A DNA stretch of 58,002 nt from a virus (Duplodnaviria > Heunggongvirae > Uroviricota > Caudoviricetes): the IMG/VR virus record IMGVR_UViG_2915331061_000005. One strand, 5' to 3'. The number at the start of each line of letters is the position of its first letter. Positions within the stretch are counted from its first letter, which is position 1. The translations under genes and the position numbers were made by a program. The notes under the pieces are model-generated. The model made no database searches. It was not told where the DNA came from and was given only the letters and a program-made list of their open reading frames with translations. Below, piece after piece: positions 310 through 30,246 of this stretch.

Positions 310-336
310 CCAAATGAGGCCAGCCTATAAACAAAA

Positions 337-1852: not shown

Positions 1853-1869
1853 AGACTCACTTCCTTTTT

Positions 1870-2951: not shown

Positions 2952-2979
2952 TTTTTCAATAATAGTATTCTTTAATTAA

Positions 2980-3008
2980 ATTTTACATGGAAAAGATTTA
3001 AAAGTCAA
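2980..3008 (-). promoter_or_regulatory. Sigma-A-like promoter for the nucleotidyltransferase pair
   Basis: Minus strand TTGACT - 17 nt - TAAAAT. Confidence 0.55.
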
Positions 3009-3032
3009 CACCTAATTTTTCAGATTTATATC

Positions 3033-4516: not shown

Positions 4517-4532
4517 TTTTTACTCTTCCTCC

Positions 4533-7604: not shown

Positions 7605-7616
7605 GATTTTTTCTCC

Positions 7617-8909
7617 TCAACTATTATCCGAAGTTGCTGTATTCGATTCTTGCGCAATGGCATTCACAATCTTTTCAACGATAGACTGTGCTGCTCTTTT
7701 TGCCATCGCACGTCCTATCGGCGTACCATTATCCAATGTGTCCGTCAGTGCCAATCGAACTTTACTGAGTCCAATTTCCTTGCGATACCAATCTGGCATC
7801 AGATTTTCCTGAATTGCAATATAGGACTCATCAAAAAACGCTGGATTTATTTCATCCCGCAGTACCCTCTGAATAATCTCATCCACTTTATCGTCTGAAA
7901 TATCTAAATCACATACTTCTCTAATATTTGTTACCGGAACTTCTATTTTCACAAACCTATCGGCCATAGGCTTTTGTATGTTCGCATAATTGCTTTTAAT
8001 ATATGCCATCTGGTGCTCAAGTTCCGGGAAAAGTGTTCCTTCATTGATATTGTAAAAACTTAGTTCTTCTAAAATTGCACTTTTTCTTCCCGCTGGTATT
8101 CTAAAACTTTGAAGTTCAAATTCATCTTGGACATCACTATATGCCCGTTTAACAATGCTCTGCCTGATTTTTCCTTTCAGCTGAACATTGTATTTCCCGC
8201 TAATCAGAAAAGAGCCGCTTTGCCGTACCAATCTTTCATTATTCAAGTTGGAAATCACAAAATAATTTCTTTGAATAATCGAAAGCAAGCTTTTATACTC
8301 GCTTGCCTCGCACTCTTTTACCTCTTTATCTGTATAAATTCCATACTTGTTCAAATCCGAGAGCAGCTTTTCTAATGTATAATCGCCCGAAATTTCATGA
8401 CTCGCTAAATATGCCAACACTTTGATCTCTATGTCACTATAACTTTTTCCGTAATCGCGCTTATAATAGATTTTCCCATCGGTCGGCGGCAATAACGTAG
8501 TCTTCCCGTCAGTTATCTTTTTCTCTTGATTGTTTTGGCAAGCAAAATACAGTGCCACCAGTGGGTTTTCCGTCACATCCAACAGTCTTGTTGGCAACCC
8601 ATAGTGTTGCAATTTTGCGAGCTTTTCAAAATCTGTTGTCAGTTTTCGGAAGTCGTCAGGATTCCGTGTGTAGGCAGCATTTATCAATTCTGCTTCGTGT
8701 GGCAGCATCCCACCACGGAACACTCCCGGCATGACGTTCCATTCGTTGCTGGCCTGTCCACGGAAGAAAAAGTGCTTTGTGCTCACTTCCGCGCCTTCCT
8801 CTTTCTTTATGGTTTCCTTTATATCAGAAATGTAGGTCAGATAGCTATTAAGGTCTGTAACAACGCATTCGTTTAAATCTTTCGTCTTAGCATTATCAAA
8901 ATCTTCCAT
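7617..8909 (-). CDS. FRG-domain protein with HsdR-like C-terminal helical extension
   Basis: FFFRGQ, QHYGLPTRLLD, NPLVALYFAC, NERLVRQSGSF motifs; 430 aa. Confidence 0.9.
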   Translation of the reverse strand: MEDFDNAKTKDLNECVVTDLNSYLTYISDIKETIKKEEGAEVSTKHFFFRGQASNEWNVMPGVFRGGMLPHEAELINAAYTRNPDDFRKLTTDFEKLAKLQHYGLPTRLLDVTENPLVALYFACQNNQEKKITDGKTTLLPPTDGKIYYKRDYGKSYSDIEIKVLAYLASHEISGDYTLEKLLSDLNKYGIYTDKEVKECEASEYKSLLSIIQRNYFVISNLNNERLVRQSGSFLISGKYNVQLKGKIRQSIVKRAYSDVQDEFELQSFRIPAGRKSAILEELSFYNINEGTLFPELEHQMAYIKSNYANIQKPMADRFVKIEVPVTNIREVCDLDISDDKVDEIIQRVLRDEINPAFFDESYIAIQENLMPDWYRKEIGLSKVRLALTDTLDNGTPIGRAMAKRAAQSIVEKIVNAIAQESNTATSDNS

Positions 8910-8949
8910 ATTATCCCTTCATTTCTTTTATAAACGATAATTTAGCAGC

Positions 8950-10128
8950 TTAAATTTTGATGCTGGAAACATCTAATTCACCAGACATGAGTTTTGGAAG
9001 AAGTTCATCTCTGAGTTCAGCCAATCTATGGGCTTCAATCCTATTTGAAATTATTAAGTCAAATATAGGGTTCATAATAGAACGAATATTTTGATATGCT
9101 ATATCTGAAGGAATAAGAACTTCTGCTTTTGCGAGTTCTTCACGCTTGATATGTCCCATAGTTGTTGCTTTATCGGCAGCAATGGCAATAAATCGGTCAA
9201 GGTGGTGCGCAGTCCACAAATAATAGAACCACTTATCGTAGGCCTTAGAGGTAACCTTGAAGAGATGCTGATTCAAGCCGCAGGTTCCCCCACACCAGAT
9301 ATCCACAAGCAAGCTACCCGACCAAGAGAATACAACATCACCGTCTTTGATGATGTACTCAGATTTGATACCGGGAGAACAAAGTTCACTATCAGCATCG
9401 CAGAAGCCCTGTCGAAGCTCTTTAATCTTCAATACAGGAAGCCCTGTTTCACGCTCATCTGGGCGAAACTTCTGCATTGCAAGGCCATTTAGATAGCTGG
9501 CAATATCCAAAAGACTACCCTTTTCCCACCCAGTTGGAATTGTGTCAATATTGATAAAGTAATTAGAGAAAATTGCTTTAGCTTGGGCATATAAATTATC
9601 GTTTACCCTTTCATTCAAAGCAATCTTATCATCAAGTTCAGCTAGAAAACGACCAATCTTCTCCTGTTCTGGCAGCTTTGGAACAGTTAATTCGAGATTT
9701 TCAAGGACAAGTTGCTGAACTCTTTGCCTTCCAGAAGAGCCAACCATTGACCTAATCGCAACATTTCTAAATTCCGGGCTTGTTGCAAGATAGTATACAA
9801 ATTGTGAGTCACTCACACCCGGTTTGGCTCGAAGAACAATAAATTCAGTAGAACCAAATGCGATTTCGTTTTCTTTCAAGCAATCAACGAATGCTGTTTT
9901 CCCATTTTCCAAACAGGGGGTAATTCTCGCCATTATAGTATCGCCATTTGCAAACTTTGTTCCACCCGAAAACTCTGCCTGCTCAACACTCGGAACGACT
10001 TTCGTAAATGGTCGTAGCTTATCCATAGATATTTTGGTTGCGACTGTTCCCTTTTTAATGCTCAATCGAGGATTGAAGTCCATGAAATCAGCCGCCCGAA
10101 CAGTTTGCCACTCAGATTTCATATCCAA
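8950..10128 (-). CDS. hsdS: Type I R-M specificity subunit
   Basis: 392 aa, two TRDs; GSTEFIVLR, P-x-L-x-EQ-x-KI, LAELRDELLPKLMSGE. Confidence 0.95.
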   Translation of the reverse strand: MDMKSEWQTVRAADFMDFNPRLSIKKGTVATKISMDKLRPFTKVVPSVEQAEFSGGTKFANGDTIMARITPCLENGKTAFVDCLKENEIAFGSTEFIVLRAKPGVSDSQFVYYLATSPEFRNVAIRSMVGSSGRQRVQQLVLENLELTVPKLPEQEKIGRFLAELDDKIALNERVNDNLYAQAKAIFSNYFINIDTIPTGWEKGSLLDIASYLNGLAMQKFRPDERETGLPVLKIKELRQGFCDADSELCSPGIKSEYIIKDGDVVFSWSGSLLVDIWCGGTCGLNQHLFKVTSKAYDKWFYYLWTAHHLDRFIAIAADKATTMGHIKREELAKAEVLIPSDIAYQNIRSIMNPIFDLIISNRIEAHRLAELRDELLPKLMSGELDVSSIKI

Positions 10129-11656
10129 TCGCCCCCAGCTTCTCCTTGATTTCCGCTTCCAGTTTGTGCGACTGTACGAACAAATCCGACAGTTCCGAAG
10201 TCAGGCGTGCCATTTTTTCCTCAAAGGGTTCGCCATCGTCCTGCTGTTCCTCGATGCCAACGTAACGCCCCGGTGTCAAAATGTAGTCCTGCTTTGCAAT
10301 TTCTTCTGTGGTGGCAGCAACACAGAAACCCTTTACATTCTCCAATGTACCCGCAACATAGGCGTTGTAGGTGTCGGCAATCTTTTTGATGTCATTTTTT
10401 AATGTGCCATCTTCATTTTTGTATTCTTCTTTTGTCCCATCCGTCAATTCACGCAACTTGCGGCTTACCATAACACCCATCTTCCGAGCGTCAATGAACA
10501 GAGTTTTACCGGGCTGCTTTTTGCGTTTGGAGATGAACCAGAGCGAAACGGGAATCTGGGTCGTATAGAAAAGCTGCGTTGGCATGGCAATAATGCAGTC
10601 CACCAAATCAGCATTCACAATGTTCTTGCGAATCTCGCCCTCACCGCCGGACTGGGAGGACAGGGAACCGTTTGCCAAAACCATGCCCATCCGACCGCCG
10701 GGCGCAAGGTGATAAATCATGTGCTGAAGCCATGCAAAGTTGGCATTGCCAGCCGGCGGCATACCATATTGCCAACGCACATCATCTTTGAGCTGCTCTG
10801 CGCCCCAGTTGGACAGGTTGAACGGCGGATTTGCCATGATATAATCTGCGCGCATGGTGGGGTGCTGGTCGTCAAGGAAAGTGTCAGCCGCATACTTGCC
10901 GAGGTCAGGTTCGATTCCACGGATGGCAAGGTTCATCTGCGCCAGCTTCCACGTTGTAGGGTTAGAATCCTGACCGTAAATCGAAATATCGTTGATATTT
11001 CCACTATGGTTCTCTACAAATTTTGCAGACTGAACAAACATACCACCACTGCCGCAGCAAGGGTCATACACTCGTCCCTTAAACGGTTGCAGCACTTCCA
11101 CCAGCGTCCGCACAACGCAGGACGGTGTAAAGAATTCGCCTCCGCGCTTTCCTTCCTGCTCTGCAAACATCGACAGGCAGTATTCATAAGTGCGTCCCAG
11201 AATGTCCTTTTCGCTGCCGTGTTCAATCATTTTGATGTTCGTAAACAGGTCAACGACTTCGCCCAACCGACGTTTATCCAGTTCTGGACGCGCAAAATTC
11301 TTCGGCAGAATATCTTTTAGGCGCGCGTTTTCTTTTTCGATAGCGCGCATTGCATCGTCAATTACCTGACCGATTTCCGGGTCATGTGCCTTTGCCGAAA
11401 CATCGCTCCAACGCGCACCAGCAGGCACAAAGAAAATTCCTTCCGATGTGTACTCGTCACGATCTTCCTCAAAGCCATCACCGTCTGCAACCAGCTGATT
11501 GTACTTATCTTCAAAACGATCCGAAATATATTTCAAGAAAATAAGACCAAGGACGACACCCTTATACTCTGAAGCATCCATATTGCCTCGAAGCACGCAG
11601 GCCGCATTCCAAATCTGTTTTTCAAATCCAATGTCGGCGGTGTTTTTCTCTGCCAT
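10112..11656 (-). CDS. hsdM: Type I R-M m6A methyltransferase
   Basis: 514 aa; GEFFTP, YDPCCGSGG, NPPF motifs. Confidence 0.97.
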   Translation of the reverse strand: MAEKNTADIGFEKQIWNAACVLRGNMDASEYKGVVLGLIFLKYISDRFEDKYNQLVADGDGFEEDRDEYTSEGIFFVPAGARWSDVSAKAHDPEIGQVIDDAMRAIEKENARLKDILPKNFARPELDKRRLGEVVDLFTNIKMIEHGSEKDILGRTYEYCLSMFAEQEGKRGGEFFTPSCVVRTLVEVLQPFKGRVYDPCCGSGGMFVQSAKFVENHSGNINDISIYGQDSNPTTWKLAQMNLAIRGIEPDLGKYAADTFLDDQHPTMRADYIMANPPFNLSNWGAEQLKDDVRWQYGMPPAGNANFAWLQHMIYHLAPGGRMGMVLANGSLSSQSGGEGEIRKNIVNADLVDCIIAMPTQLFYTTQIPVSLWFISKRKKQPGKTLFIDARKMGVMVSRKLRELTDGTKEEYKNEDGTLKNDIKKIADTYNAYVAGTLENVKGFCVAATTEEIAKQDYILTPGRYVGIEEQQDDGEPFEEKMARLTSELSDLFVQSHKLEAEIKEKLGAIGYEI

Positions 11657-12344
11657 GGTTCAATACCTCCGTTTTAGCTCAACAAATTCTGCTTTGAGTA
11701 TAGCACAGATGTGCTGATTTTCCAATTTGTGCGCATAAATTCTTTGCAAGATGCTTCAATTTCCAGTAGATAAGTCCTACTATTACCGCTTTAGCACAAT
11801 AAATTTTACAAAACCATCTTGACGCACCCTGCAAACCATGATATTCTCTGTCACAAATCCCACCGATTTTGTGGATTGCTTTGAAACCATCCACAAGATG
11901 TGGTCGTGTTCATTTTGAACACTGCCTCGCCGTGGATCATCCCTGAAAGATTAACCGCCCCGCAACACACCCGATTCATTTTGCCGCCGATTCACCCGAC
12001 AAAATCATCGCTGCGCTGCGTGGGCGGTATTTTTCTTTTACGGGAGCTGCACCTTGAAAATTTCATGAGCCGACCGGACGTGATACCGACTTTCCGTCAA
12101 CGCCGTTGCACAAACAGGGGCAGGAACTTCGTTCGGAGCAAACGGCGATTCTCATACATGAGCAGGACAACCTCTACTTATTTTTGTGTCTTAACAATTC
12201 GGAAACAATCACTGAAAATACGTTTTGAGCGCAGCGGTAGAGGGCAAGAACCGTCCCGTGGCCACAAATTTTCAATTCTTGAAAATTTTCTGTCCATCCG
12301 GGACTTCACTTCTACAATGCGTCTGCATTTCCGAAGTGATCTTG

Positions 12345-18287: not shown

Positions 18288-18674
18288 TCATTCCGTGGCG
18301 GTGCTGGTCACGCTCAGCACCTGTTCGTACACATCACAAAGCGCCATCTGGGTGCTAGTGAGTTGGTCTGCCATGGTGGCGTTCTGGTTTTCCAGTTCCT
18401 TCACCCGGTCTTCCAGCTTCTTTTCTTCCGGCACCGGGACGGGTGTAGGCGGCGCATAGTCCCACCATTTGTCAAAGTCCGTCTGAACTTCCTCGGCGGT
18501 CAGCACACCATCCACACGCTGCTGGCGTTCGTCGCAGGCGTAGACGGTATACTTCTTGCCTTCGTCATCGGTCTGTTCCTGCCTTTTGATATCCTTCCGC
18601 AGGATCATGTCCGTTTTGCTGCCAACGCGAAACACCTCAACGGCGGCCGGCAGGAAGGGATAAATCTCACTCAT
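18288..18674 (-). CDS. Phage tail-associated protein (XkdW-like coiled-coil C-terminus), 128 aa
   Basis: ATG overlaps the RT stop (ATGA); ends LEDRVKELE...QLTSTQMALCDVYE, a pattern seen before CD1375/XkdX-type genes. Confidence 0.65.
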   Translation of the reverse strand: MSEIYPFLPAAVEVFRVGSKTDMILRKDIKRQEQTDDEGKKYTVYACDERQQRVDGVLTAEEVQTDFDKWWDYAPPTPVPVPEEKKLEDRVKELENQNATMADQLTSTQMALCDVYEQVLSVTSTATE

Positions 18675-19909
18675 GCTGCTTTCCTCCTGTTGTTCTGGAT
18701 CATCGACCATCGGGCAACGCTCCACCGCGCCGCCTTCATGATCGTTTCGACCTGATATTTTTCTTCAAGGTTTGCGCTATCGCTGTTTGTAAACCAGCCG
18801 TTGTATGCGGTCAGCTTTGATGCACGCCAATGCGGAACATAGCCCAGCATTGCAAGGTTACGCCCTGCGCGGATCAGCTGCCGCCTGATGCGGCGGAACA
18901 CACCTTTGCGGACGATGGTATATGTGCGGCGCACCGCAAATCCCATCATATCCAGCGCTGGTGTACGGTGTTTGCTTCCCTGCGCTCTAGCGGCTTTCGC
19001 ACGCTTTTCTTCCTCGAAGGATGCAAAGCGCACCTGCTGCCATGCCTGCTTTAGCTCTAAGCCCAGTGTGGACTTTACCCAGTGGGTCGCCTTTTTCATC
19101 GCTTTCATCAGCTGTGATGCGTGCCCGATGATTACAAAATCATCCGCATAGCAGACGATCTCACGGACAAGCCGTGTCCCCGTGCCGCGCCGGACCTGCT
19201 TTAGGGATAGCAGGTATCGGAGAACATAGCTCATAACGTAGTTGAAAGCCCACGTTGAGAAATACCCGCCGATTAACAGCACGCCGTCCGGGTAGTTTTC
19301 GGTCACAGCACTGGCATACCAGATCAGCTTTTTGTTCTTTCTGATGTCCCGTTTCAAAAGCGTTATCACGCAGGCTATCGTTGTAGACGGATATGCTTTG
19401 TGCACATCGCCCTTGACTGCATCCAGTTTGCCAAGGATTTTCTTTCGGACGATCCGCTCAATCTGCCGCGTTCCTGCCACCTGTCCTTTGCCCGGGATGC
19501 TCCCGAACTGCATCGGCAGCAGCTTTGCATGGAGCAGCGGTTGCAGTGCATGGACAAGGATGTACTCATGTACCTGCTGTTCCGGCGATTCCTGGCAAAG
19601 GTCCCGTTCCTTCATTTTGATCCCATCAATGCGTTTGAATTGCCGGACTGGTTTCAGGTCAAGGCATTCGTCCCTGATCTTCTGTGTTTCCTGTTCGGCC
19701 ACTGCGTCAATGGCATCAACGATCTTCCTGCACTCGTGGTTCTTTCGTTCATGAAACAGCTCCGGTTCAGAGATTTTTCCGGTCTTTGTTAGAACCGTTC
19801 TAAAATCCCTGCGCCGGAGTTTTCCGTTTCCAAACGCACAATGTACCGCTGACAGGTTGAAACCGACATCCTCAATGTCAACGTCTTTTGGTTTACAAAA
19901 TGTTTTCAT
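18671..19909 (-). CDS. DGR reverse transcriptase, 412 aa
   Basis: YADD catalytic motif, GSIPGKG, KGDVHKAYPS, IGGYFS motif-4 variant, LDMMGF; no endonuclease domain; adjacent TR/VR pair. Confidence 0.95.
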   Translation of the reverse strand: MKTFCKPKDVDIEDVGFNLSAVHCAFGNGKLRRRDFRTVLTKTGKISEPELFHERKNHECRKIVDAIDAVAEQETQKIRDECLDLKPVRQFKRIDGIKMKERDLCQESPEQQVHEYILVHALQPLLHAKLLPMQFGSIPGKGQVAGTRQIERIVRKKILGKLDAVKGDVHKAYPSTTIACVITLLKRDIRKNKKLIWYASAVTENYPDGVLLIGGYFSTWAFNYVMSYVLRYLLSLKQVRRGTGTRLVREIVCYADDFVIIGHASQLMKAMKKATHWVKSTLGLELKQAWQQVRFASFEEEKRAKAARAQGSKHRTPALDMMGFAVRRTYTIVRKGVFRRIRRQLIRAGRNLAMLGYVPHWRASKLTAYNGWFTNSDSANLEEKYQVETIMKAARWSVARWSMIQNNRRKAA

Positions 19910-20113
19910 ATAAAAATCATCTGGTTCTTCAACGACTTTCGGGTTCAGGCTTTTGCCCTATGCTACTAGCCGCCAGCAGGTTCCTTGTCCTGCCGCCACG
20001 GATGGACCCGCCCTTTCCTGCGGACGCAGCGCCGTGATGCTGGTTTCAAGAAATTTTCGCACATAAGCGCGGAATGCATGATGCAATGATTGATGATTTT
20101 TGGTGAACCAGTT

Positions 20114-20263
20114 GCACGCCAGCGCCGCCGTTCCAGTTCGCGTTACCGACCCAGTTGTTCGAGTTCGCCGCCGCCAAAGACGCATTGCCGCCGTTGTTCA
20201 AGTTGCAGCACCGCCAAGCCGCGCGGACACCGGACGCTGCCGGATTGACGTAGAAGCCAGCCT
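20114..20263 (-). repeat. DGR template repeat (TR)
   Basis: 150-bp match to 20369-20518; 11 AAY codons plus one TAC in the target frame. Confidence 0.97.
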
Positions 20264-20300
20264 GTGGACACCATGCATCCCAAATCCCGTTATCGTCAAA

Positions 20301-20340
20301 AGGGGCTGGCTGCCCCTCTTGCCCGGACGATGCCGGGCAA
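20301..20340 (-). promoter_or_regulatory. DGR target-recognition hairpin(s) downstream of VR
   Basis: ttgcccgg-acgatg-ccgggcaa (20319-20340, 8-bp GC-rich stem) and aggggc-tggct-gcccct (20301-20317), just after the target stop codon. Confidence 0.7.
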
Positions 20341-20351
20341 TTCACCCCGCT

Positions 20352-22091
20352 TTACCCAGCAAGGCCAGGCACGCCAGCGCCGCCGTGCCAGGACGCGTTA
20401 CCGACCCAGTTGTACGAGGTCGCCGCCGCCAAAGACGCATCGCCGCCGTCGAGCAAGTCGCAGCACCGCCAAGCCGCGCGGACACCGGACGCTGCCGGAA
20501 TGACGGAGAAGCCAGCCTTAACGCCGGTGCCGCTGCCCGCACGGGTAGACACGGCAGCAGGCCACAGCACCGCCGGGTCATTGCTGATTGCCGTATCTTC
20601 GATATACTGCCATGCGTTGGCTGTGCCTTCCGGGAAGGTCAGCGTCAGGTCTTCCTGCTTCGTGTAGTCAGCAGAGATAGAACCATCGGTCGTCACCTTC
20701 GTCTGATCGTGGCAGGTGTAGATGTCAAAGGTGTAATTGCCGTCGCCGTCCTTGCCCCACTGCCACAGTTCATCCGCCACGATCAGGTATGCGCCGTTCT
20801 GGAACTCCGTCTTCTGGATCAAGCCAGGTTCCTTGCCGTTGGTGTAGTTGGTGCGCGAGCCATCGTTGCCGCGCACGCTGTCGTTATAACCGCTGCCATA
20901 AGGCATAGTGGACAGCATCGTCTGCCCCTTGACCACATTCCAGGTATCGCCGGTATCAACGTAGACTGCTTTGTAGCCCGTTCCGTCCACGTTGATGTCT
21001 TCAATGCGGGTAATGCGGGCTTCGGTCTGGATGTCATGCATGGTGGCATCGTTACGGTCGGTCGTGCTCTTCGTGTGGGTGCCAATGGCAACGTAGGAAT
21101 CAATAAGCAGGTTTGCGGCCTGCTCGGTCGTCACCGGGAAGTAGTTCACGCCCTCTGCATCAATGGCGGCAGTGTACTGGTAGCTGTAGGAAGTGCAGCC
21201 CTCAATGGTGCCGCTGTTGCCCTTGCGTGCATACTTCAGCTGGATCATGCGCTCCTGCCATTTCAGCAGGTTGCCGGATGCACCGGCGTACTGGTTGCCA
21301 CGAGCACGCCACAGCTGCACCAGCTGGGTGTGGCTCTTGTAGTTCACCGGTGCCAAACCCGTGTGACCGCCGATCTTGCCGTCATCCTGCATACCGGCGA
21401 AATACTTCGGGTTTGCAATGTACGGATAGGTCTTGCCGGTACGGTCGGTGCCCTGCGGCCACTGCTCGTAACCGCCGGACGGGTGGCAGCGCATACGCAG
21501 GATGCGGTAGCCGCCCTCGTTGCGCTCACGCACATAGGTATTCTTCTGCAACACCCAGACCAGATGATTGGTGCTGCGCACAAAGTCGTCATCGTCGATG
21601 TACTGACAAGCGTAGATCGTGTGGCTGCCGTCCTCGTTCTTTTCTGCCGCCACTTCCACGCACCAGAACTGCGGCAGACCGGCAAAATCATCCTTGCCGG
21701 ATTCTGCGGCGGTGGACGGGGTGCAGGACAGGCCCACGCTGTCGTCGGTCAGCTCACCGATTGCGGTGTTGGATGTGCTGAACAGCGGGAACTTTACGCC
21801 ATGCACGCGGCTGTCGTCCAGCACATTGCCGAACCAACGTTCCAGCATCCGGTTATAGGTGCTGGTGTTCGGATTCCAGTTCGCCGTCCACCAGTCTACG
21901 AACAGCACGTTCATTTCCCGTGCCGTGGTCACTTTCTGAGCCAGCGCGTTATAGTACCGGTCGATGGTATCTTCATTGCCGGTTGCCAGAACGGCGGTAC
22001 GACCATCGCCCGCCGCCGCCATAGTGGTACCGGACACCGCAGCAAAAATCTGCTGCAAGGATTCATCGGATGCCATGTGAGTTCTTGCCAT
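20352..22091 (-). CDS. DGR target protein, putative receptor-binding protein with C-terminal C-type-lectin-like fold, 579 aa
   Basis: VR occupies the last ~55 codons; located in the tail module. Confidence 0.9.
   Translation of the reverse strand: MARTHMASDESLQQIFAAVSGTTMAAAGDGRTAVLATGNEDTIDRYYNALAQKVTTAREMNVLFVDWWTANWNPNTSTYNRMLERWFGNVLDDSRVHGVKFPLFSTSNTAIGELTDDSVGLSCTPSTAAESGKDDFAGLPQFWCVEVAAEKNEDGSHTIYACQYIDDDDFVRSTNHLVWVLQKNTYVRERNEGGYRILRMRCHPSGGYEQWPQGTDRTGKTYPYIANPKYFAGMQDDGKIGGHTGLAPVNYKSHTQLVQLWRARGNQYAGASGNLLKWQERMIQLKYARKGNSGTIEGCTSYSYQYTAAIDAEGVNYFPVTTEQAANLLIDSYVAIGTHTKSTTDRNDATMHDIQTEARITRIEDINVDGTGYKAVYVDTGDTWNVVKGQTMLSTMPYGSGYNDSVRGNDGSRTNYTNGKEPGLIQKTEFQNGAYLIVADELWQWGKDGDGNYTFDIYTCHDQTKVTTDGSISADYTKQEDLTLTFPEGTANAWQYIEDTAISNDPAVLWPAAVSTRAGSGTGVKAGFSVIPAASGVRAAWRCCDLLDGGDASLAAATSYNWVGNASWHGGAGVPGLAG
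20369..20518 (-). repeat. DGR variable repeat (VR)
   Basis: Differs from TR at 12 positions, all TR adenines on the coding strand; encodes the target C-terminus. Confidence 0.97.
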
Positions 22092-22093
22092 GT

Positions 22094-22336
22094 TTAGTCC
22101 TCCTGTCCATCATCAAAGGTCAAGCGACCGGCTTCGTCATAAAAGAAGTACGGAAGCCCTTCCAGTTTTTCCAGTCTTTTTCCGGTGGCTGCCGCATCGG
22201 CGGCAGAGCCTTCCTTTTTCAGTGTCTTATCCGGCAGCAGTTCCTTTGCCCAGTTCGGCACGTCTTCGTCGATCAGCTTATAGGTGGTGCCGTCAATGAC
22301 AAGGTAGGTGGCTCTTACGATTTTTACGTTTGCCAT
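22094..22336 (-). CDS. Small tail-fibre-associated protein, 80 aa
   Basis: Contains KTLKKEGSAADAAATG, a motif common in fibre N-terminal segments; tightly packed in the operon. Confidence 0.6.
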   Translation of the reverse strand: MANVKIVRATYLVIDGTTYKLIDEDVPNWAKELLPDKTLKKEGSAADAAATGKRLEKLEGLPYFFYDEAGRLTFDDGQED

Positions 22337-22584
22337 TCCGTCTTACCTCCCAGAGAGAGCGTCACCACGCCGCGCCCATCGTCCGAAGCGGTCAGCTTCA
22401 AAGCGTTCAGGTTTGCTTTGATGCCCGGCACCTGCAAGGTTTCGCCCACCACTTTTGCGATCTGTGCCGGGGTTGCGCGGTAGAGATCGTTCTTTCCGTC
22501 TGCTCGTTTCCGAACCACGATTACATAGTCCGCGCTTTCAAACGCTTCTGCCAGGGCTTTGTCTGCCAGACTTACCATGCCCAT
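22324..22584 (-). CDS. Hypothetical protein, 86 aa
   Basis: Overlaps both neighbours in operon fashion. Confidence 0.6.
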   Translation of the reverse strand: MGMVSLADKALAEAFESADYVIVVRKRADGKNDLYRATPAQIAKVVGETLQVPGIKANLNALKLTASDDGRGVVTLSLGGKTEWQT

Positions 22585-23900
22585 TTCTCTGCCGCCTCCT
22601 TCTCAATGGCTTTCAGCTCTGCGGCTTCATCCTCACCAATCAGACGCGCCACTTCCTCGTAGGGGAGATTCACCTTCTTCGGTGCGGTATCTCCCAGAGC
22701 TATACTGCGCATATTGCAGTACCAGCACACAGCCAGCACACGCGCCTTGTGAACTTTGCAGATTCCGGTATACCTACGGTTTGCAGTTCCGAACATTTCA
22801 TAGTTCAAACCACTGCACCAGCCGCACCCGGAAGATACCGGGCAATGGATGCACTCTTCCGTGGACTGTGATTTCATGGTGATTGCATCCAGTTCTTCCT
22901 TCACCTGCCGTTGCTGATCCGTGGCATACAGACCGCCCTCCTGCACATTGCCCAGACACACCCGATCCGCCTTCTCTTTGCCAATAGAGATAGGCGCATA
23001 CCTGATGCAGGGATACGCGGACCCGTCCGGGGCAAAACTCAGCATTGCGCCGGTTCCGCCGCAGAAGTTTCGGTCGTTCTGTTCTGCATCGCCGATCTGT
23101 TCATCCAGCATAGCAATCGCCACGTCCCAGCCGTTCTTGATAACGTACTGCGAAACCTCTTTCAGCTGCTTGTACAGTGCCTTGCCGTCCTCGTCCGTGT
23201 ACATCGGCTCGTAGGCGCAGTTCCCGGCAATGTGCCTGCACCCGGCATCCAGCATCATTTTCATACTGGATGCAATGTACTGGATGGAACCGGGCACGAA
23301 GGTCATTTTGCTGTTGAGCCAGCCATACTTCCGCTTGCCGTCCTGGAATGCTGCCCACGCGGTAGAAAAGCTACCGTTTCCGTCTTCGTCGATGCGGTAA
23401 CGGTCGTGCAGCTCTTGCACACCATCAATGGACACTGTAACCGACATAAGATTATGGTACTTTTCCAGCAGGTGCTGCGCCGCCGGGGAGAACCACAGTC
23501 GGCCATTCGTGGCGAAAGAAATGCGCGTGAACGGTCCCAGCGGGATTTCCCGCCGGTAGCACTCCGAAAACCAGTAGTCGCAGATATGCTCGATCAGTTC
23601 AGCTTCCAACAGCGGTTCCCCGCCGATGAAGTCCAGGATCAGGGCTTTGGTGTCCCGGTTCACAAAATCGGATGTGCCATCCTCATACAGATTCAGGATG
23701 TAGTCCACGATTTTCTTTCCGGTTTCCAACGTCATTTTTTCGGTAGACTTGTGGTGCTCATAGCAGTATGAGCACCGCAGGTTGCAGGCGTTTGTGATCT
23801 GGAACGTGACGTTTCGGCAGATGCTTCCACACTCCCGCCTGTCCCTGCCATATAAGCGCTGGACGGTATTCCCGTAGTCCTCATACTTTTTCGTTCTCAA
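22572..23900 (-). CDS. Radical SAM/SPASM peptide maturase (CXXX-repeat-target type), ~442 aa
   Basis: CNLRCSYC, FIGGEPLL, SIDG; SPASM FCGGTG...YPC...CIHCPVSSGCGWCSG...C. Likely TTG start at 23900 behind RBS GGAGG. Confidence 0.95.
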   Translation of the reverse strand: MRTKKYEDYGNTVQRLYGRDRRECGSICRNVTFQITNACNLRCSYCYEHHKSTEKMTLETGKKIVDYILNLYEDGTSDFVNRDTKALILDFIGGEPLLEAELIEHICDYWFSECYRREIPLGPFTRISFATNGRLWFSPAAQHLLEKYHNLMSVTVSIDGVQELHDRYRIDEDGNGSFSTAWAAFQDGKRKYGWLNSKMTFVPGSIQYIASSMKMMLDAGCRHIAGNCAYEPMYTDEDGKALYKQLKEVSQYVIKNGWDVAIAMLDEQIGDAEQNDRNFCGGTGAMLSFAPDGSAYPCIRYAPISIGKEKADRVCLGNVQEGGLYATDQQRQVKEELDAITMKSQSTEECIHCPVSSGCGWCSGLNYEMFGTANRRYTGICKVHKARVLAVCWYCNMRSIALGDTAPKKVNLPYEEVARLIGEDEAAELKAIEKEAAEKWAW

Positions 23901-24183
23901 CGGGGTGTACCTCCTCCCGTTCAAAGTCAAAGTGCACGATCAGGTTCGGGTTTTCTTCCGGGTCGATGTACCGCGCCAACACCTTGTCCTGCACCATCTT
24001 CAGCTTCATCTGCGCTTTCCGGCACAGTCCTGCGTAGTAGTGCAGCATATCAGCAATCATCGTATTCGCGCCAGCGTTCAGCTGACGTGACAGAATTGCC
24101 ATCAGCGCTTCATAGGACTGCGCTTCGTAGTATGCACGTTCCACCGCTTCACTTTCCTGTGTGGTGATCTTGATATTGTTCAT
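23881..24183 (-). CDS. Small accessory protein of the rSAM cassette, 100 aa
   Basis: MNNIKITTQE...; RBS AAGGAG; overlaps the rSAM start by 20 nt. Confidence 0.75.
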   Translation of the reverse strand: MNNIKITTQESEAVERAYYEAQSYEALMAILSRQLNAGANTMIADMLHYYAGLCRKAQMKLKMVQDKVLARYIDPEENPNLIVHFDFEREEVHPVENEKV

Positions 24184-24193
24184 GCCGTACTCC

Positions 24194-24769
24194 TTACTGT
24201 GCATCCCGTTTCGGCAGTTTGTCCGCCGCCTGACGGTATCTTGCACGGACCCGATTCATCTTGACCATGGCCGAAACCATATCGTGCATATCTTCTGTTT
24301 CGCTTAACCGCAGCAGTTCGATCAGCACAACAAGCAGGTTCCACATAGAGAAAAACTCCACATCGTCTTTGCATTCATACTGAGCCGCCTTGATGAACGG
24401 TGCAGGATCACACTCACCTCTTCGGACAGGGTGTGCCGCAAAGTTGAACGTCCTGGCTGCCAGACCAAAGCCCATCAGGTAAATCCGGTCTTCGTCCGCG
24501 TCTTCGTCGCAGGCTGTCACTACAGACTGTGCAACTGTGATGCAGTATGCGCACCACACATCGAACTTATCTTCCGTGTTCACCATGAACATACCGGCAC
24601 ATCCGATGCACCAGAAAACTTTCTCCATGCCGGGCGGTGTATCTGCAAGAAGTCCCTGCCAGTCCTCCGGGTTGACCGTTTCGTGGGTCTGGATTTTCAG
24701 CATCGGAAGATTTTTGGTATACGCCTTTTCGCTTCTTGCGTCGTTGTTCGGTTCAAATGCCACGTCCAT
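24194..24769 (-). CDS. Hypothetical protein with two CxxC motifs, 191 aa
   Basis: WCIGC and WCAYC; lies between the Cys-rich gene and the rSAM gene. Confidence 0.75.
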   Translation of the reverse strand: MDVAFEPNNDARSEKAYTKNLPMLKIQTHETVNPEDWQGLLADTPPGMEKVFWCIGCAGMFMVNTEDKFDVWCAYCITVAQSVVTACDEDADEDRIYLMGFGLAARTFNFAAHPVRRGECDPAPFIKAAQYECKDDVEFFSMWNLLVVLIELLRLSETEDMHDMVSAMVKMNRVRARYRQAADKLPKRDAQ

Positions 24770-24787
24770 TTTGTTCTCCCTTTCTCG

Positions 24788-25699
24788 TTACCACAGGAAT
24801 CCAGAGCAAGATGTACAGCCGCCAGAGCAGCTTCCAGAGCATCCGCTGCAACTGCTATCACAGTTGCTTGTGCAGGATGCGCCACAGTGAGAATTGCAGT
24901 CTCCTTCGCAGCTGTCAGAACAGCCGCTTTTACAGTTTGCAAAGCAGCCATTTCCTCTGCAACTGTCCTGGCAGCTGGACGCACAGTAGGAATCGCACCT
25001 ATCGTTGCACCGTCCCGTACAATCATCCGCGCAGGTAGCATCACAGCTACCGGAACAGCCGCCGGAACAGCCGTCACAGCCGCCTTTGCATCCTCCCTTG
25101 CAGCCCGTCTTGCAGCCATTGGTGCAGTCATTTGCACAGCTTGCCGTGCAGGTCGTGTTGCAGGTATTTGTGCAGTTTCCTAAACAGGTGTTGCTGCACG
25201 ACCCCTGACAAGTTCCCCTGCAAGTAGCCGTGCAGTCATTCGCACAATTTGCCCTGCAAGTTCCTACGCACCCTCCGCCACAGCTGCCGGTGCAGCTGGT
25301 ACAGGACGTGTTGCAGCCATTGGAGCAAAGCCCCGTGCATTGCCCGCTGCACCCGGTCGCCGTTGCAGTTTCCGGGATATTGCTCAGTGTGCTTACCGTT
25401 GCCGCCGCTTGCGCAAGCCCCGATGCTGCAACTTGGTCTCCCCGCGCCGGTGTCGTTGCACCGCCCTGAACGGCATCCACCAGACGGGTGATTTTCTGGA
25501 TGTGTTCTGCATCCACGCTCACGCCATCCGCCGGGGTCACATTGTACTGGTACGCCGTTCCCCTATATGCTGCCATGCTGCCAACGGACTGTCCCTGTGC
25601 GGTGCCTTCTGTCTTGCCGCGCCGACCGATCTCTGCGTCTATCAGGCTTTTCAGGGCAAGAAAATCTTCGTCGGAAATAAACTGTCCTCTCTCCGGCAT
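24788..25699 (-). CDS. CxxxC-repeat cysteine-rich protein, putative rSAM substrate, 303 aa
   Basis: Cys-free ~115-aa N-terminus followed by about 47 Cys, mostly spaced CxxxC with G/S/T/N/D/A spacers. Confidence 0.9.
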   Translation of the reverse strand: MPERGQFISDEDFLALKSLIDAEIGRRGKTEGTAQGQSVGSMAAYRGTAYQYNVTPADGVSVDAEHIQKITRLVDAVQGGATTPARGDQVAASGLAQAAATVSTLSNIPETATATGCSGQCTGLCSNGCNTSCTSCTGSCGGGCVGTCRANCANDCTATCRGTCQGSCSNTCLGNCTNTCNTTCTASCANDCTNGCKTGCKGGCKGGCDGCSGGCSGSCDATCADDCTGRCNDRCDSYCASSCQDSCRGNGCFANCKSGCSDSCEGDCNSHCGASCTSNCDSSCSGCSGSCSGGCTSCSGFLW

Positions 25700-25703
25700 C
25701 CTC

Positions 25704-27101
25704 TCACCCCCTCACCCGGACACGAATGCGGCGTTCATCCGTCCGGTCGTCGCCTTCCACCGCATAGCCGACAATGCATTCTGCCGGAGCAAACTCCCCT
25801 GCGCAGGCCGCCCGGCCAATGCCAGGCGTACCCGAAGGCAAAATTAAATCCCCGGTCTTCACCCTGCCGGTCACGCGCACTCTGACGCGCCCTGCAAGGG
25901 AAACGGGGATATACTTTTCTATGTTAGCTTTGAAGTTGTCGTCTTTCTCGTCCGGCGTATCGCCGCCAATCAGGTACGCATATTCGTCCGTGTGCACGCC
26001 CACAACGCGATCCATCTTTCCAACCGCCTTGATATACCGTTCTGTCTGGCTGCCCACATCCAGCGCAATGATATCTCCCGGCTTGGTATCGCACCCACGG
26101 GGGAACCATTCGGCGTAGTCGTTATAGACCGCACCATACACTTTGCGGAAGTTCGCCGTGCCATCGCTGCCGACGTAATAACTGTTGTCAGTACCAAAGT
26201 ATGTAGACTGCTGGAACCGCACCGCGCCCGTAAAGGTGCCGCCAGACGTAGGCATTGCACCCAGATTCGCCAGCGCCTGTGTTGCGGTCTGGGCACCGGT
26301 GCCGCCGCGAGAAATAGGGAACGTTCCGCTGGTCACATCATCCGCGTTGTGCTTGTGGTCCATTGCTGCTGCTGAAATGTCCGCAGCGGAAATTTTGTGC
26401 GGGTTCTTTGCAGAAAGGTGTGCGATGAAGGCGGCAATTGCCGTGCGAATCTTCCGCAGGATGTTTCCCAGCTTTTCGCCGGAAGCGATATTCTGCACAT
26501 CGTAGGAGCCATCCGTCTTCGTAATGTAGTCATTTGAGAACACCGGCTGTTGGTTCGTCGGGGTGACATTGGGCACATTGCCCAAACCAACCTGCTCTGC
26601 CGTAACATGGTGCGGATTGTTGTGGTCATCGATGTGGTCTTTCAGGTCTTGCTTGCTGGCATAGCCGGAATACTCACCCAGCGTTGCCGTCACCTGCTCT
26701 GCATCGCCAACCGCAACCACCATGTGGAAGGTTTCCTGCACCGTCATGTCGCCGCTCTCCGGCGGCACAACGGCAGCTTCGTTTCCCGCATTGGCATATG
26801 CATACAGGATTTCTCCATCGTCCGGGTCGTTGGCGAAGATGCCAATTTCCCGGGCGACCAGCTTTGATTTCAGACCGCTGTTCGTGTAGGTGGATTCCAG
26901 CACGGCGCAGTTTGCAGACAGCTCAATGCTGTTGATCTGCATATTGGCTGCCAAATGCACAAGATTTTTCAGGTCACGCGGTTCCTCTGGTGCGGCGCCA
27001 TCGCCCAGCGCAAATTTCGTGAAATTGATTGCGGTGCCATTCAGAGCTTTCACGATCAAAGCCCTGCCTGAATTGGTCAGGATCAAACTCGGAAAAAACA
27101 T
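25704..27101 (-). CDS. Tail fibre: tail-collar N-terminus and C-terminal autocleaving-chaperone-like domain, 465 aa
   Basis: LILTNSGRALIVKA...REIGIFA...LYAY N-terminus; NNPHHVTAEQVGLGNV; YNDYAEWF...PGD...LAGRVRV C-terminus (peptidase G2-like). Confidence 0.85.
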   Translation of the reverse strand: MFFPSLILTNSGRALIVKALNGTAINFTKFALGDGAAPEEPRDLKNLVHLAANMQINSIELSANCAVLESTYTNSGLKSKLVAREIGIFANDPDDGEILYAYANAGNEAAVVPPESGDMTVQETFHMVVAVGDAEQVTATLGEYSGYASKQDLKDHIDDHNNPHHVTAEQVGLGNVPNVTPTNQQPVFSNDYITKTDGSYDVQNIASGEKLGNILRKIRTAIAAFIAHLSAKNPHKISAADISAAAMDHKHNADDVTSGTFPISRGGTGAQTATQALANLGAMPTSGGTFTGAVRFQQSTYFGTDNSYYVGSDGTANFRKVYGAVYNDYAEWFPRGCDTKPGDIIALDVGSQTERYIKAVGKMDRVVGVHTDEYAYLIGGDTPDEKDDNFKANIEKYIPVSLAGRVRVRVTGRVKTGDLILPSGTPGIGRAACAGEFAPAECIVGYAVEGDDRTDERRIRVRVRG

Positions 27102-27113
27102 TGTTTCCCCCTT

Positions 27114-27749
27114 TTAGTCTGTCAGGATGTTCCCGTCTGCGTCCAGAAGGGCGTTTTCGTCCGCATCTACAAGCCAGCTGAATACGCTTTCTCCATCTGC
27201 CGTCACGCCAGACCACTTGCCCACAGTGACCGACGCAAAGCCGAAGAACAGCTTGTGCATTTCCTCCGTGGAAAGCTGCAACATATCCAGGTGGGCGCTG
27301 GCCCGCTTTACATGGCTGAGAATGTCCAGCATTTCTTCAATGTCGATTGGGCCTTCTGCCTTAATCTTGATTCGGAAGCAGCCCGGCGTTCCGTCGTACT
27401 CGAACCATTCTCGCACAGTCGCGTCACCGTACAGGTCACGCATCATATCTTCCACAGCTGCTTTTGTTCCCACCGTCATATAATAAGGTAGGGACGCTTT
27501 CACAAGCCGTCGTTTTGTTTCGATGTCGTAGTCCTGCCGGTAGCGCGGCGCACGGAATTGAACTGCCAGAATGTCCAGCAGTTCATCCGATGCATGGTCA
27601 ATGCCCGTGTAGATTTTCGCATTGTCGGTAAAATCCAAAATCAGAATTGCCAGCTCATGCCATGCATCCGATATCGACTTTACCCATTGCTGGTCTGCAA
27701 CACTTTTCGGCAACAGGTCGGTCAGCTTTGCATTGCGAAGATCAGTCAT
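27114..27749 (-). CDS. Baseplate/tail protein I (P2 gpI-like)
   Basis: LLDILAVQF, GTKAAVE, VREWFEY, HVKRASAHL; RBS GGAGG before MTDL. Confidence 0.85.
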   Translation of the reverse strand: MTDLRNAKLTDLLPKSVADQQWVKSISDAWHELAILILDFTDNAKIYTGIDHASDELLDILAVQFRAPRYRQDYDIETKRRLVKASLPYYMTVGTKAAVEDMMRDLYGDATVREWFEYDGTPGCFRIKIKAEGPIDIEEMLDILSHVKRASAHLDMLQLSTEEMHKLFFGFASVTVGKWSGVTADGESVFSWLVDADENALLDADGNILTD

Positions 27750-28893
27750 CTTCCAGTCCTCCGTACACCACATTGCAGGTTGTCAGCTTCGGAATCTCAG
27801 CGCTGCCCACCACAACGTCGGTTGGCGCGGTGATCTTCACCTTCTTTGCCCCGGCATTCTTGATTTGTGCAATCAGTTCCGCCGGGTCAATGTCCCTGCC
27901 CATGGTGCGCTGCCACACCTTGTAGACTTCAACCGCTTCGTTCACTGCGTTCTGCACAGTAACGGCGATCTTGGATTTACTGCGGGCAATGGTATAGGTC
28001 ACGTCAATGCTGTACTCAACCTCGGTCGGGGCTTTGCAGTTCACATAGTCCGTCATGGGTCGGCGTGCATCATTGCGCAGATTTTCTTCCATGCTGTCGC
28101 AATCACTTTTGCTCGGCAGCGTTCCATCCTGCAACGTAAAATAAATGTCCACCACGCAGGGCGACGGGCTTTGTACGGAAACGTCCTTCACGTCGTTTCG
28201 CCATGCCTTAGCGAAATACTCATAAGCGTCCGGTGGACCAGCACAGGAATATGTAGAGGGCACCAGGTAGGTTCTCTCCGTCAGCGAATCGTCGCTTTCA
28301 ATATCCGTACCACCGCTGCTGGCCGTAACGTTTACCGCCGATGCAACATATGGGATGGGGTCCACTAGCTGATTGATTTGCCCTTCCTCAATGCCGGACG
28401 ACGCCGCGCCTTCTTCTTCCGCTTCTGCTTCTACGTCCACATACTGCGAACCTGGTGTGATCTCCGCGTAGTCCATCGTGGCAAAATAAATGCCGTCCTG
28501 TGTTCTAACGCGGGTTTGCGCTGGAATGCCTACAGCACCAGGCTGTTTTGCATCAGCCAGAGTAAACCGGATCGTCACCTTTGCTTTTTCAGCCGGGCGG
28601 CGGGTCAAGCCATAGTTCCCGGCCAGGTCGTCCAAATCGCCGTGGGCGGAGTATTTCAGCAGCATTCGTTTCGGGCCTGCATCGACGTACTGCAAAATCT
28701 GGTAGCCAAAAAGCGTCATTGCTTTCAGTATCAGTGCCGGGACACTGGCGGGGTAAATAATCGGTGTCTGCCCGGTTGCTTCCTGCATGGATTGACTGAA
28801 CTCTCCCTTTGTCAGCTCTTCCACTTCCTTCATAGACAGGTTGTCGGTAAAGCTGATATCCGGCAGATTTTGAAGCTGTGAAATTTCAGACAC
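27742..28893 (-). CDS. Baseplate J/gp47 family protein
   Basis: LDDLAGNYGLTRRPA, GGTDIESDDSL, AGPPDAYEYFA, RRPMTDYV. Confidence 0.92.
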   Translation of the reverse strand: MSEISQLQNLPDISFTDNLSMKEVEELTKGEFSQSMQEATGQTPIIYPASVPALILKAMTLFGYQILQYVDAGPKRMLLKYSAHGDLDDLAGNYGLTRRPAEKAKVTIRFTLADAKQPGAVGIPAQTRVRTQDGIYFATMDYAEITPGSQYVDVEAEAEEEGAASSGIEEGQINQLVDPIPYVASAVNVTASSGGTDIESDDSLTERTYLVPSTYSCAGPPDAYEYFAKAWRNDVKDVSVQSPSPCVVDIYFTLQDGTLPSKSDCDSMEENLRNDARRPMTDYVNCKAPTEVEYSIDVTYTIARSKSKIAVTVQNAVNEAVEVYKVWQRTMGRDIDPAELIAQIKNAGAKKVKITAPTDVVVGSAEIPKLTTCNVVYGGLEDD

Positions 28894-29191
28894 TTCTCAA
28901 CACCACCTTTGGGATCAATACCCCCTGCCCCACCTTCGACGTGTCCCACTCAATGCGGACCACTTCAACGCGGGGTTCGTACTTCTTTGTTTTGCGGACG
29001 ATTTCTGCCGCCAGTAGCGCTTTTGCAACGCTGGTCGGCTTGTCCACGGCATCCAGCGAAATGCCGAAGTCCCGGTCAAGACCCTGTTCCCCGGCTCGTG
29101 CGGAGTACAGTACTTTCAGGCATTCGCAGATATCCTCTGCATCTTCCATGCCGGAGGATGCAAGCTGAATTTTTGCTTCTCCTAAAGTCAT
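28886..29191 (-). CDS. Baseplate wedge protein (gpW/gp25-like)
   Basis: 101 aa; LDRDFG, KYEPRVEVVRI. Confidence 0.8.
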   Translation of the reverse strand: MTLGEAKIQLASSGMEDAEDICECLKVLYSARAGEQGLDRDFGISLDAVDKPTSVAKALLAAEIVRKTKKYEPRVEVVRIEWDTSKVGQGVLIPKVVLRSV

Positions 29192-29580
29192 GCGTATTCC
29201 TCAAATGATAAATCGATTTTGCAGCGGACAAGCCGTCCACCTGCAGCAACGCAGTCCCATGCGTCGGACGCATCCGTCAGCTTAAACAGGCACATTCCCA
29301 CAGGGTCGCTGCCGATAATCAGATAGTCCACCGTGCCTTCCTCCGCCATCCGCTGGATGTTCGCCAGCATTTCACGCGGCTTCACACCGTACTGCGCGTC
29401 CAGCGTGACCGTAAACTTGTACGCCTTCAACTTCTGGCCGGTCAGCTCACTTTTCGGTTTTCCGTTGATTGTGTTGTGGGTCGCCCAATCGCTGCCCGTA
29501 CTGCCTTGGATATCCTGCATCGTGAATACCTTGTTGCTGTCTACCGAAAACACAAGGCCGCCAAAACATCCAACCTGCAT
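29188..29580 (-). CDS. Phage tail protein (P2 gpU-like)
   Basis: WATHNTINGKPKSELTG, CKIDLSFEEYA. Confidence 0.8.
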   Translation of the reverse strand: MQVGCFGGLVFSVDSNKVFTMQDIQGSTGSDWATHNTINGKPKSELTGQKLKAYKFTVTLDAQYGVKPREMLANIQRMAEEGTVDYLIIGSDPVGMCLFKLTDASDAWDCVAAGGRLVRCKIDLSFEEYA

Positions 29581-29598
29581 ACTGTGTCCTCCTGCGAT

Positions 29599-30246
29599 TT
29601 ACGTCGGCTTTACTGTATCGCCCATGCCTCCGGCATGGAGCGGCAGCGTATACTTGTGCGTGTGGTTTACCAGACTGATCCCGCTGATTACCGCGTCGCC
29701 GCCACCACCTGTGATGTTGACTGTTCCGCCATCAATGGTGATGGTGGGTGCATTCATACTGATTTGAGAACCGCCCACGATCTGAACGGTGCCGCCCTGG
29801 ATCGTGACGGTGCAGCTTCCCACTTTCACGGTCAGCTTTCCTTTCACTTCCAGTTCAGCATTTCCGTCAACGGTTTCCGTTTTGTTCTTCTTGGTTTCCG
29901 ACTTCGTGTCGCCCTCATTGTGGAAGGTGGCTTTCTTTCCGTCATAGCGGAAATAGCACTTCCCGGGTTTGTCATCGAAGTCCTGTCTGTAAAGGTTTTG
30001 GGCACCCTCCGGGGGATTTTCATTTTCGCCCCAGGTGGTGCCCAAAACCACGCCTTCTTCTTCTCCGTTGGAGTTATGCGCCACCACAACGGTGTCTCCG
30101 ACTTTCGGCATTTTGTACCCAGCATTCGCCAGCATCGGGATCATGTCCGTCACACTGTCTTCCCGGTCTTCGTATGTAACTTCCATACAGCCGGTTTTGT
30201 AGTTGATGTTTGATACTTTGCCAAACCGTATTGAATCTGCCATCAT
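29599..30246 (-). CDS. Baseplate spike (P2 gpV-like)
   Basis: OB-fold RFGKVS...MPKVGDTVVV, beta-helix repeats, terminal HTH (His-Thr-His) metal-binding tip. Confidence 0.88.
   Translation of the reverse strand: MMADSIRFGKVSNINYKTGCMEVTYEDREDSVTDMIPMLANAGYKMPKVGDTVVVAHNSNGEEEGVVLGTTWGENENPPEGAQNLYRQDFDDKPGKCYFRYDGKKATFHNEGDTKSETKKNKTETVDGNAELEVKGKLTVKVGSCTVTIQGGTVQIVGGSQISMNAPTITIDGGTVNITGGGGDAVISGISLVNHTHKYTLPLHAGGMGDTVKPT

Follow-up and report, generated by a model that had tools for sequence, protein, structure and literature searches.

A CXXX-repeat protein and a radical SAM/SPASM enzyme encoded in the tail-fibre module of a myovirus-type prophage

A four-gene cassette behind a tail fibre gene

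In the 58,002-nucleotide stretch of IMG/VR virus record IMGVR_UViG_2915331061_000005 (the whole of which we call the window), four tightly packed minus-strand genes occupy positions 22572-25699, directly behind a tail fibre gene (Table 1). They encode a 303-amino-acid (aa) protein dense in cysteine, a 191-aa accessory protein, a 100-aa helper, and a radical S-adenosylmethionine (rSAM) enzyme with a SPASM domain. An earlier reading made from the letters alone (the sequence-only reading) had placed such a cassette between the tail fibre and an adhesin diversified by a diversity-generating retroelement (DGR). Our check of the open reading frames (ORFs) in the window bears this out: all four are present on the minus strand. 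The downstream protein is a genuine DGR target as well; the template repeat (TR) and variable repeat (VR) differ at 12 positions, 12/12 of them at TR adenines, and the reverse transcriptase gene adjoins.

The gap between the fibre gene and the gene for the 303-aa protein is only 4 nucleotides (nt), followed by gaps of 18 nt to the 191-aa gene and 10 nt from there to the helper gene. The helper and rSAM genes overlap by 20 nt, or by 50 nt when an upstream TTG is taken as the start of the enzyme, and the rSAM gene overlaps the next downstream gene by 13 nt. The helper ATG at 24183 lies within a 121-aa ORF that begins with GTG (23881-24246); it follows an AAGGAG at a spacing of 6 nt, and this motif overlaps the 191-aa stop codon. 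For the enzyme, the true start is probably the TTG at 23900, which has GGAGG 10 nt ahead of it and would give a protein of 442 aa. Promoter-like and terminator-like sites did not rise above shuffled expectation.

Table 1. Features of the fibre module, in window coordinates.
Feature	Position	Strand	Description
DGR reverse transcriptase (18671-19909) and TR (20114-20263)	18671..20263	-	RVT_1 match
DGR target protein, 579 aa	20352..22091	-	phrog_17147; VR 20369-20518 at the C-terminus; the element that follows in the fibre module
Two small genes (86 and 80 aa)	22094..22584	-	overlap the rSAM gene and one another; kept only in close relatives
rSAM/SPASM maturase, 452 aa from TTG 23930	22572..23930	-	TIGR04115, CteB similarity, tree
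Helper, 100 aa	23881..24183	-	remote TIGR04116 (CXXX_rpt_assoc) homologue (moderate support)
Accessory protein, 191 aa	24194..24769	-	clade-restricted; WCIGC and WCAYC motifs
CXXX-repeat target, 303 aa	24788..25699	-	TIGR04114 25.2 bits, TIGR04117 33.9 bits, phrog_6085
Tail fibre, 465 aa	25704..27101	-	N-terminal tail-collar domain; PF12571 and phrog_7037

The enzyme, the helper and the accessory protein

The sequence-only reading had assigned the enzyme a CxxxCxxC motif, a full set of SPASM cysteines and a kinship with peptide maturases, and all three hold. The rSAM motif is C49-x3-C53-x2-C56, and its cysteines, together with C290, C308, C360, C363, C369, C372 and C391 of the SPASM domain, are invariant across nine diverse relatives. 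The best family is TIGR04115 (306.7 bits, E 2.8e-91, model positions 2-359 of 359), which belongs to the CXXX-repeat modification system, reportedly defined by Haft and Basu in 2011 through genome mining. The phage enzyme misses the 350-bit equivalog-domain cut-off of that model; a classic member scores 491.9 bits. The next NCBIfam matches are PapB (153 bits) and then the CcpM, SCIFF and QhpD (TIGR03906, 77 bits) maturases. Among solved structures the nearest is CteB (5wgg, E 3.7e-22). The two align only from CteB residue 94 onwards, and the phage enzyme therefore lacks the fused RiPP recognition element (RRE; RiPP, ribosomally synthesized and post-translationally modified peptide). A PqqD-like RRE was found neither in the enzyme nor in the helper, which has no PDB match at E <= 0.001.

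Species-representative bacterial genomes hold three architectures around such enzymes. The phage-type architecture has a ~450-aa enzyme, an upstream helper and a target bearing a Cys-free domain. The classic architecture has a ~720-aa enzyme with a TIGR04119 domain, a TIGR04116 protein and peptides of 60-130 aa, and the giant architecture, in Margulisiibacteriota, has repeat proteins of 500-670 aa. In a quick maximum-likelihood tree (LG+G4), the phage-type enzymes form a 41-row clade (SH-like approximate likelihood-ratio test, SH-aLRT, 94) that is sister to a 29-row classic clade (SH-aLRT 86), into which the enzymes neighboured by TIGR04116 proteins fall. The window enzyme lacks the TIGR04119 domain; at 442-452 aa it has no extension and no NCBIfam match to that family.

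The helper links the phage-type cassette to the classic one, at a distance. The 90-position TIGR04116 model (cut-off 50 bits) does not match it even at E 10, and a scan with the model gave 82-90 bits in two Anaerococcus genomes, where the matches are 88-aa proteins adjoining classic enzymes, and nothing in three genomes with phage-type cassettes. In jackhmmer searches, either seed reaches the other group, with 14 shared matches, and hhalign of disjoint helper and TIGR04116 alignments joins them end to end over 92 columns (E 4.7e-5, probability 68%). These comparisons lend moderate support to the helper being a remote TIGR04116 homologue. The sequence-only reading had named TIGR04114, TIGR04115 and TIGR04116 as models to search: the first passes its cut-off, the second is the best family and falls short of its cut-off, and the third fails directly and is reached only through remote homology.

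AlphaFold2 (AF2) models the helper with high confidence (predicted local distance difference test, pLDDT, 93.4) as a long hairpin of helices with a small three-stranded sheet as its cap. Foldseek returned only generic helical hairpins from the PDB (best E 0.49). In the AlphaFold database the fold occurs in family members and also inside a 662-aa SPASM-domain protein (template-modelling score 0.83 by query), an occurrence that fits a physical partnership between helper and enzyme. A helper-like domain was sought inside the long rSAM enzymes of the loci that we examined, and none was found. From the model we are confident that the predicted fold is novel and is not a PqqD-type RRE.

Homologues of the 191-aa protein were found by jackhmmer only in loci L001-L053, which make up the window's own cassette clade, and searches of Pfam, NCBIfam, PHROG and the Atlas gave no match. 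The two CxxC motifs that the sequence-only reading had pointed out are indeed present in the window protein, but they are not conserved among its homologues. A conserved metal or thiol site in this protein is unlikely because the motifs vary. We also considered the protein as a detached TIGR04119 domain (hhalign probability 0.1%) and as the linker of the classic enzymes (no similarity), and rejected both.

Several targets of classic systems begin with a possible export signal. The CXXX proteins of L112, L114, L115, L118, L119 and L120, from Ignavibacteria and Bacteroidales, have N-terminal twin-arginine motifs (RRDFL or RREFF) followed by a hydrophobic stretch, which implies that in those classic systems the product is folded or modified before it is exported.

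These features bear on one alternative, that the repeat is a metal or iron-sulfur array of the metallothionein kind and that the rSAM enzyme performs a chemistry other than thioether formation or has another substrate. Dense CxxxC arrays can bind metals, twin-arginine signals on Bacteroidota and Ignavibacteria target relatives mark a route for folded or cofactor-loaded proteins, and the score of the enzyme lies below the TIGR04115 cut-off. Against this, the enzyme clade is paired with CXXX repeats across all three architectures, and its closest characterised relatives, CteB, PapB and QhpD, all make Cys thioethers. We regard a metal array as highly improbable.

The cysteine ladder and its link to tail fibres

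The 303-aa target has two parts, much as the sequence-only reading described it (a Cys-free N-terminus of ~115 aa, then about 47 Cys mostly in CxxxC). Residues 1-116 form a conserved domain without cysteine, and residues 117-298, beginning with the first Cys at 117, form a ladder of 47 Cys in which 41/46 spacings are CxxxC (41 spacings of 4, 4 of 3 and 1 of 5) and the spacer residues are almost only G, S, T, N, D and A. That this is a CXXX-repeat target is borne out by the TIGR04114 repeat model, whose cut-off of 20 bits it passes, and by the precomputed annotation of its homologues, which bear PF27846. Ladder proteins in related IMG/VR loci keep the ~115-aa domain, with repeats of 13 to 64 Cys. 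After its last Cys the window protein ends in SGFLW (window 24788-24802). Aromatic tails of this kind (SGFLW, SGKFLF, SGGFMW, GWAVF, GGLFF) follow the last Cys in L002-L053 homologues and are missing in more distant members.

The Cys-free domain is not tied to the N-terminus. A profile of it, searched against 1.84 billion representatives, reached 292 protein clusters, and of the 102 stored family members with 150 aa or more, 92 have CxxxC repeats. In L085 (i-E 1.5e-7), L090 and L087 the domain sits at the C-terminal end and the repeat at the very N-terminus, and two members found by profile in an unbiased search have an extra N-terminal domain, both of them inside tail modules. A search for longer proteins yielded 81, with lengths of 540-1785 aa. 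The repeat lies at either end of them or in the middle and starts as early as residue 3; its partners in these long phage proteins are ALK_LTK_GRD glycine-rich domains, Flg_new repeats, and discoidin or SH3 domains. We inspected two of the long repeat proteins. The gene for one has fibre-like neighbours and comes just ahead of the endolysin gene, beside a 112-aa helper and an rSAM gene; the other belongs to a large phage whose portal is of the T4 type and whose rSAM bears an intein. In L144, the rSAM gene of a large phage (3320-5110), with a T4-type portal nearby, is split by a Hint/intein domain. It adjoins genes for Flg_new proteins of 1277 and 1679 aa, and the larger ends in a ~500-aa CXXX repeat.

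Because the Cys-free domain is C-terminal in some relatives, it does not behave as a classical leader, and the sequences argue against the target being a classical leader/core RiPP precursor. The sequence-only reading had likewise judged that the N-terminus does not look like a short leader, which agrees with a conserved domain of ~115 aa that is also found C-terminally.

The cassette keeps constant company with a fibre gene. Among 52 related loci in IMG/VR, the order fibre, Cys protein, 191-aa-type protein (where there is one), helper, rSAM holds in 47/47 that reach far enough upstream, and it is kept down to 58% rSAM identity and next to unrelated baseplate genes. Upstream of the 24 phage-type cassettes taken from species-representative bacterial genomes we found Baseplate_J (11), YQBQ (5), Mu Gp48 (3), P2-I (3), tail-collar (3), tape measure (2) and other genes. 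Counting both sets, a CXXX-repeat target lies beside the rSAM gene in 47 viral and 24 genomic loci; in the window, the target is three genes upstream. Phage-borne cassettes are thus much commoner than others in the subfamily, the opposite of the distribution mostly outside tail modules that the sequence-only reading had said would speak against it.

In L017 (384-9341), two divergent full modules stand back to back, each with a fibre, a CXXX protein, a 190-216-aa accessory protein, a helper and an rSAM. Both modules are complete, and therefore fibre and cassette were duplicated as one unit. The two fibre genes contain a 254-nt inverted repeat with 98% identity (3507-3760 and 5764-6017), and a perfect 22-nt palindrome lies between them (4984-5029). 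Recombination between the inverted repeats could swap the fibre ends. As a candidate invertible segment we rejected the locus, both copies being complete with an rSAM of their own; a recombinase was not searched for.

A distant carrier is phage SPN3US (L056; JN641803, 143168-144286), in which two unannotated CXXX-repeat ORFs of ~130 aa lie upstream of two rSAM genes. The annotated gp166, rich in Ala and Val, overlies one of these repeat ORFs in another frame.

The fibre itself has an HxH..GGTG motif in common with R2-pyocin fibres (motif match to PDB 6cl5 and 6ct8). Its C-terminal ~220 aa resemble an intramolecular-chaperone domain of the Peptidase_G2 type, with an NDYAEWF motif and a weak match to PF11962 (E 0.13). 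The resemblance suggests that residues ~245-465 (window 25704-26400) are an autocleaving intramolecular chaperone, in which case the mature fibre may end near residue 329. The same C-terminal region, from ~245/283 to 465 (~200 aa), is the sole part in common with the fibres upstream of diverged cassettes.

This linkage invites the explanation that the Cys-ladder protein is a fibre-assembly factor outside the virion, a counterpart of P2 gpG or Mu U, perhaps a rigid scaffold or template, that is shed once assembly is complete. It would account for the slot directly after the fibre gene, for the way the cassette travels with the fibre C-terminal ~200 aa across phages with differing fibre N-termini, and for the joint duplication in L017. 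But the fibre already ends in its own chaperone-like domain (on a weak match), a chaperone that needs 13-64 Cys and a dedicated rSAM enzyme has no known precedent, and adhesin-like domains are joined to the repeat in other phages. We consider an assembly factor quite unlikely.

The same data weigh on a second alternative, in which the 303-aa protein is the precursor of a very large RiPP-like product: the Cys-free domain would be a long leader or follower, and the modified repeat would be freed at lysis to act on other cells, for instance through bacteriocin activity, signalling or metal binding. Systems with short-leader peptides of 60-130 aa form the sister group of the enzyme family, and the helix of the Cys-free domain, in which K17, E23, R26 and R27 are invariant, could be a recognition motif. 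Yet genes for a leader peptidase, exporter or transporter are missing from all of the more than 70 cassettes, the domain is C-terminal or absent in some members, relatives are multidomain proteins of 600-1700 aa, and the cassette stays strictly within fibre modules and is co-duplicated with the fibre. The sequence-only reading had offered release at lysis as its alternative; the lack of a peptidase or exporter, the movable domain and the fibre linkage weaken it, and we keep it as an unlikely rival.

The prophage around the cassette is gut-type and of the myovirus type, with genes for a terminase, portal, capsid E, sheath, tape measure, Baseplate_J, a P2-I-like protein and the tail-collar fibre; the P2-I-like and Baseplate_J genes lie upstream of the fibre gene. 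The left flank of the window (1-12000) has a lower G+C content, 0.40-0.48, and encodes a type I restriction R subunit (4533-7604), so it is probably host DNA or another island. Between 48000 and 52000 the G+C content is 0.59-0.61 and the AT skew is reversed.

In three RNA-seq runs that bear the name of the source species, 0 reads fell within 20000-30000; the strain in question may lack the prophage. An RNA library described as a 'synthetic metagenome' (X19) gave contigs over 22094-24757, and these are single ORFs of a related phage, exact from start to stop, that cover the 80-aa gene, the helper, most of the 191-aa gene and baseplate genes. With such exact boundaries they look like synthesised gene fragments, and we rejected them as evidence of transcription. 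Isolate genomes carry the window prophage, which makes the question of the cassette's function testable.

A proposed stapled protein of the fibre module and its place among known systems

Taken together, gene order, domain architecture and enzyme kinship lead us to favour, by a modest measure, a reading in which the cassette modifies a tail-fibre-module protein instead of a small secreted peptide and yields a stapled protein associated with the virion or the fibre. The thioether chemistry is the one that the nearest characterised enzymes, CteB, PapB and QhpD, would predict. We infer the role of the helper as well as incorporation into the virion, the latter from gene context.

Under this reading, the fibre operon would yield, late in infection, the two-domain 303-aa protein, the TIGR04116-like helper, the 191-aa accessory protein and the rSAM/SPASM enzyme. 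The helper would most likely hold or present the substrate to an enzyme that has no recognition domain of its own. The enzyme would then move along the repeat, cleaving S-adenosylmethionine, abstracting a hydrogen from the carbon of a spacer residue and joining that carbon to the sulfur of a neighbouring Cys, to give a ladder of up to ~47 small thioether rings. Such a stapled ladder would be a stiff, protease-resistant and redox-independent stalk, and the Cys-free ~115-aa domain would be its docking or functional end, attached to the adjacent fibre or acting with it.

Several observations weigh against a stapled fibre-module protein. Among the best 150 of the 292 clusters reached by the domain profile, nearly all have the Cys-free domain at the N-terminus of a stand-alone protein. 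No fusion of the domain with a fibre turned up. The slot right after the fibre gene is also typical of fibre-assembly chaperones that do not enter the virion. The chemistry of the phage enzyme may differ from that of its family, its score being under the TIGR04115 cut-off, and the spacers of the target offer no fixed acceptor, unlike the Asp of PapB substrates. An AF2 model of the whole target, built with 14 homologues, reached a pLDDT of only 41.7, with three weak helices confined to the Cys-free domain and the repeat left unmodelled. Lastly, the virion proteome of SPN3US, the only one published for a carrier, contains gp167-173 and lacks gp161-166 (PMC5694885, Table S1), although mass spectrometry of those virions could not find the Cys-repeat proteins because their ORFs are unannotated.

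If the ladder is nonetheless a stapled part of the fibre, radical-SAM thioether cross-linking would be added to the chemistry of virion assembly, and ~300 sequence clusters of viral 'hypothetical' proteins would be explained. The cassette would also offer a tractable substrate for the uncharacterised TIGR04115 family, bear on how gut phages stay stable amid abundant proteases and under reducing conditions in which disulfides fail, and be of use in engineering rigid peptide scaffolds. More tentatively, we propose that anaerobe phages may use a dedicated rSAM enzyme to convert a repeat protein to a covalently stapled, protease-proof rod within their host-recognition apparatus. It would be the first case of an enzyme installing thioethers in a virion protein, and the 'CXXX-repeat RiPP' family would largely be a system for maturing phage structural proteins. 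If the product is instead released, it would be by far the largest known RiPP-like molecule, and a phage-encoded one.

We found no biochemical study of the CXXX-repeat system (TIGR04114-04117, TIGR04119) in the literature and no literature description of a phage tail-module version of the cassette. By its sequence relationships, the cassette is a divergent, phage-type branch of that catalogued system (TIGR04114/04115/04116). The two have side by side a CXXX target, a SPASM rSAM enzyme (TIGR04115 over its full length) and a TIGR04116-related partner of ~100 aa. They differ in that the window enzyme is under the cut-off, in the sister clade, and ~450 aa long without TIGR04119, whereas classic enzymes have ~720 aa with it; that the window helper is encoded upstream and is missed by the TIGR04116 model; that phage-type targets have 140-650 aa including the ~115-aa domain, in contrast to a classic peptide of 60-130 aa; and that the setting here is a phage tail module. 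What is new is the TIGR04116 link and the helper fold, the placement of the enzyme in a sister clade, the absence of TIGR04119, the permuted Cys-free domain, the co-duplication of cassette and fibre, and the lack of conservation of the CxxC motifs in the 191-aa protein.

The ranthipeptide/SCIFF enzymes CteB and PapB are likewise rSAM/SPASM proteins with two auxiliary clusters, and by analogy a Cys-to-carbon thioether would be expected on a Cys-rich substrate. Unlike them, the window enzyme has no fused RRE; its presumed substrate, a protein, offers dozens of sites without a fixed acceptor, and no exporter or peptidase accompanies it. A precedent for modifying a protein instead of a peptide is QhpD, a SPASM rSAM enzyme that thioether-links a protein, QhpC, which stays in a larger assembly. 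QhpC, however, is a small enzyme subunit with few cross-links, no repeat and no phage context.

Phages are known to stabilise virion parts covalently or by folding modules, as in the isopeptide chainmail of the HK97 capsid, the G2-type module of phi29 gp12 and the S74-type module of endosialidase. The fibre adjacent to the cassette seems to carry a module like the G2-type chaperone of phi29 gp12. Those systems are autocatalytic, whereas here a separate radical enzyme and a helper are encoded.

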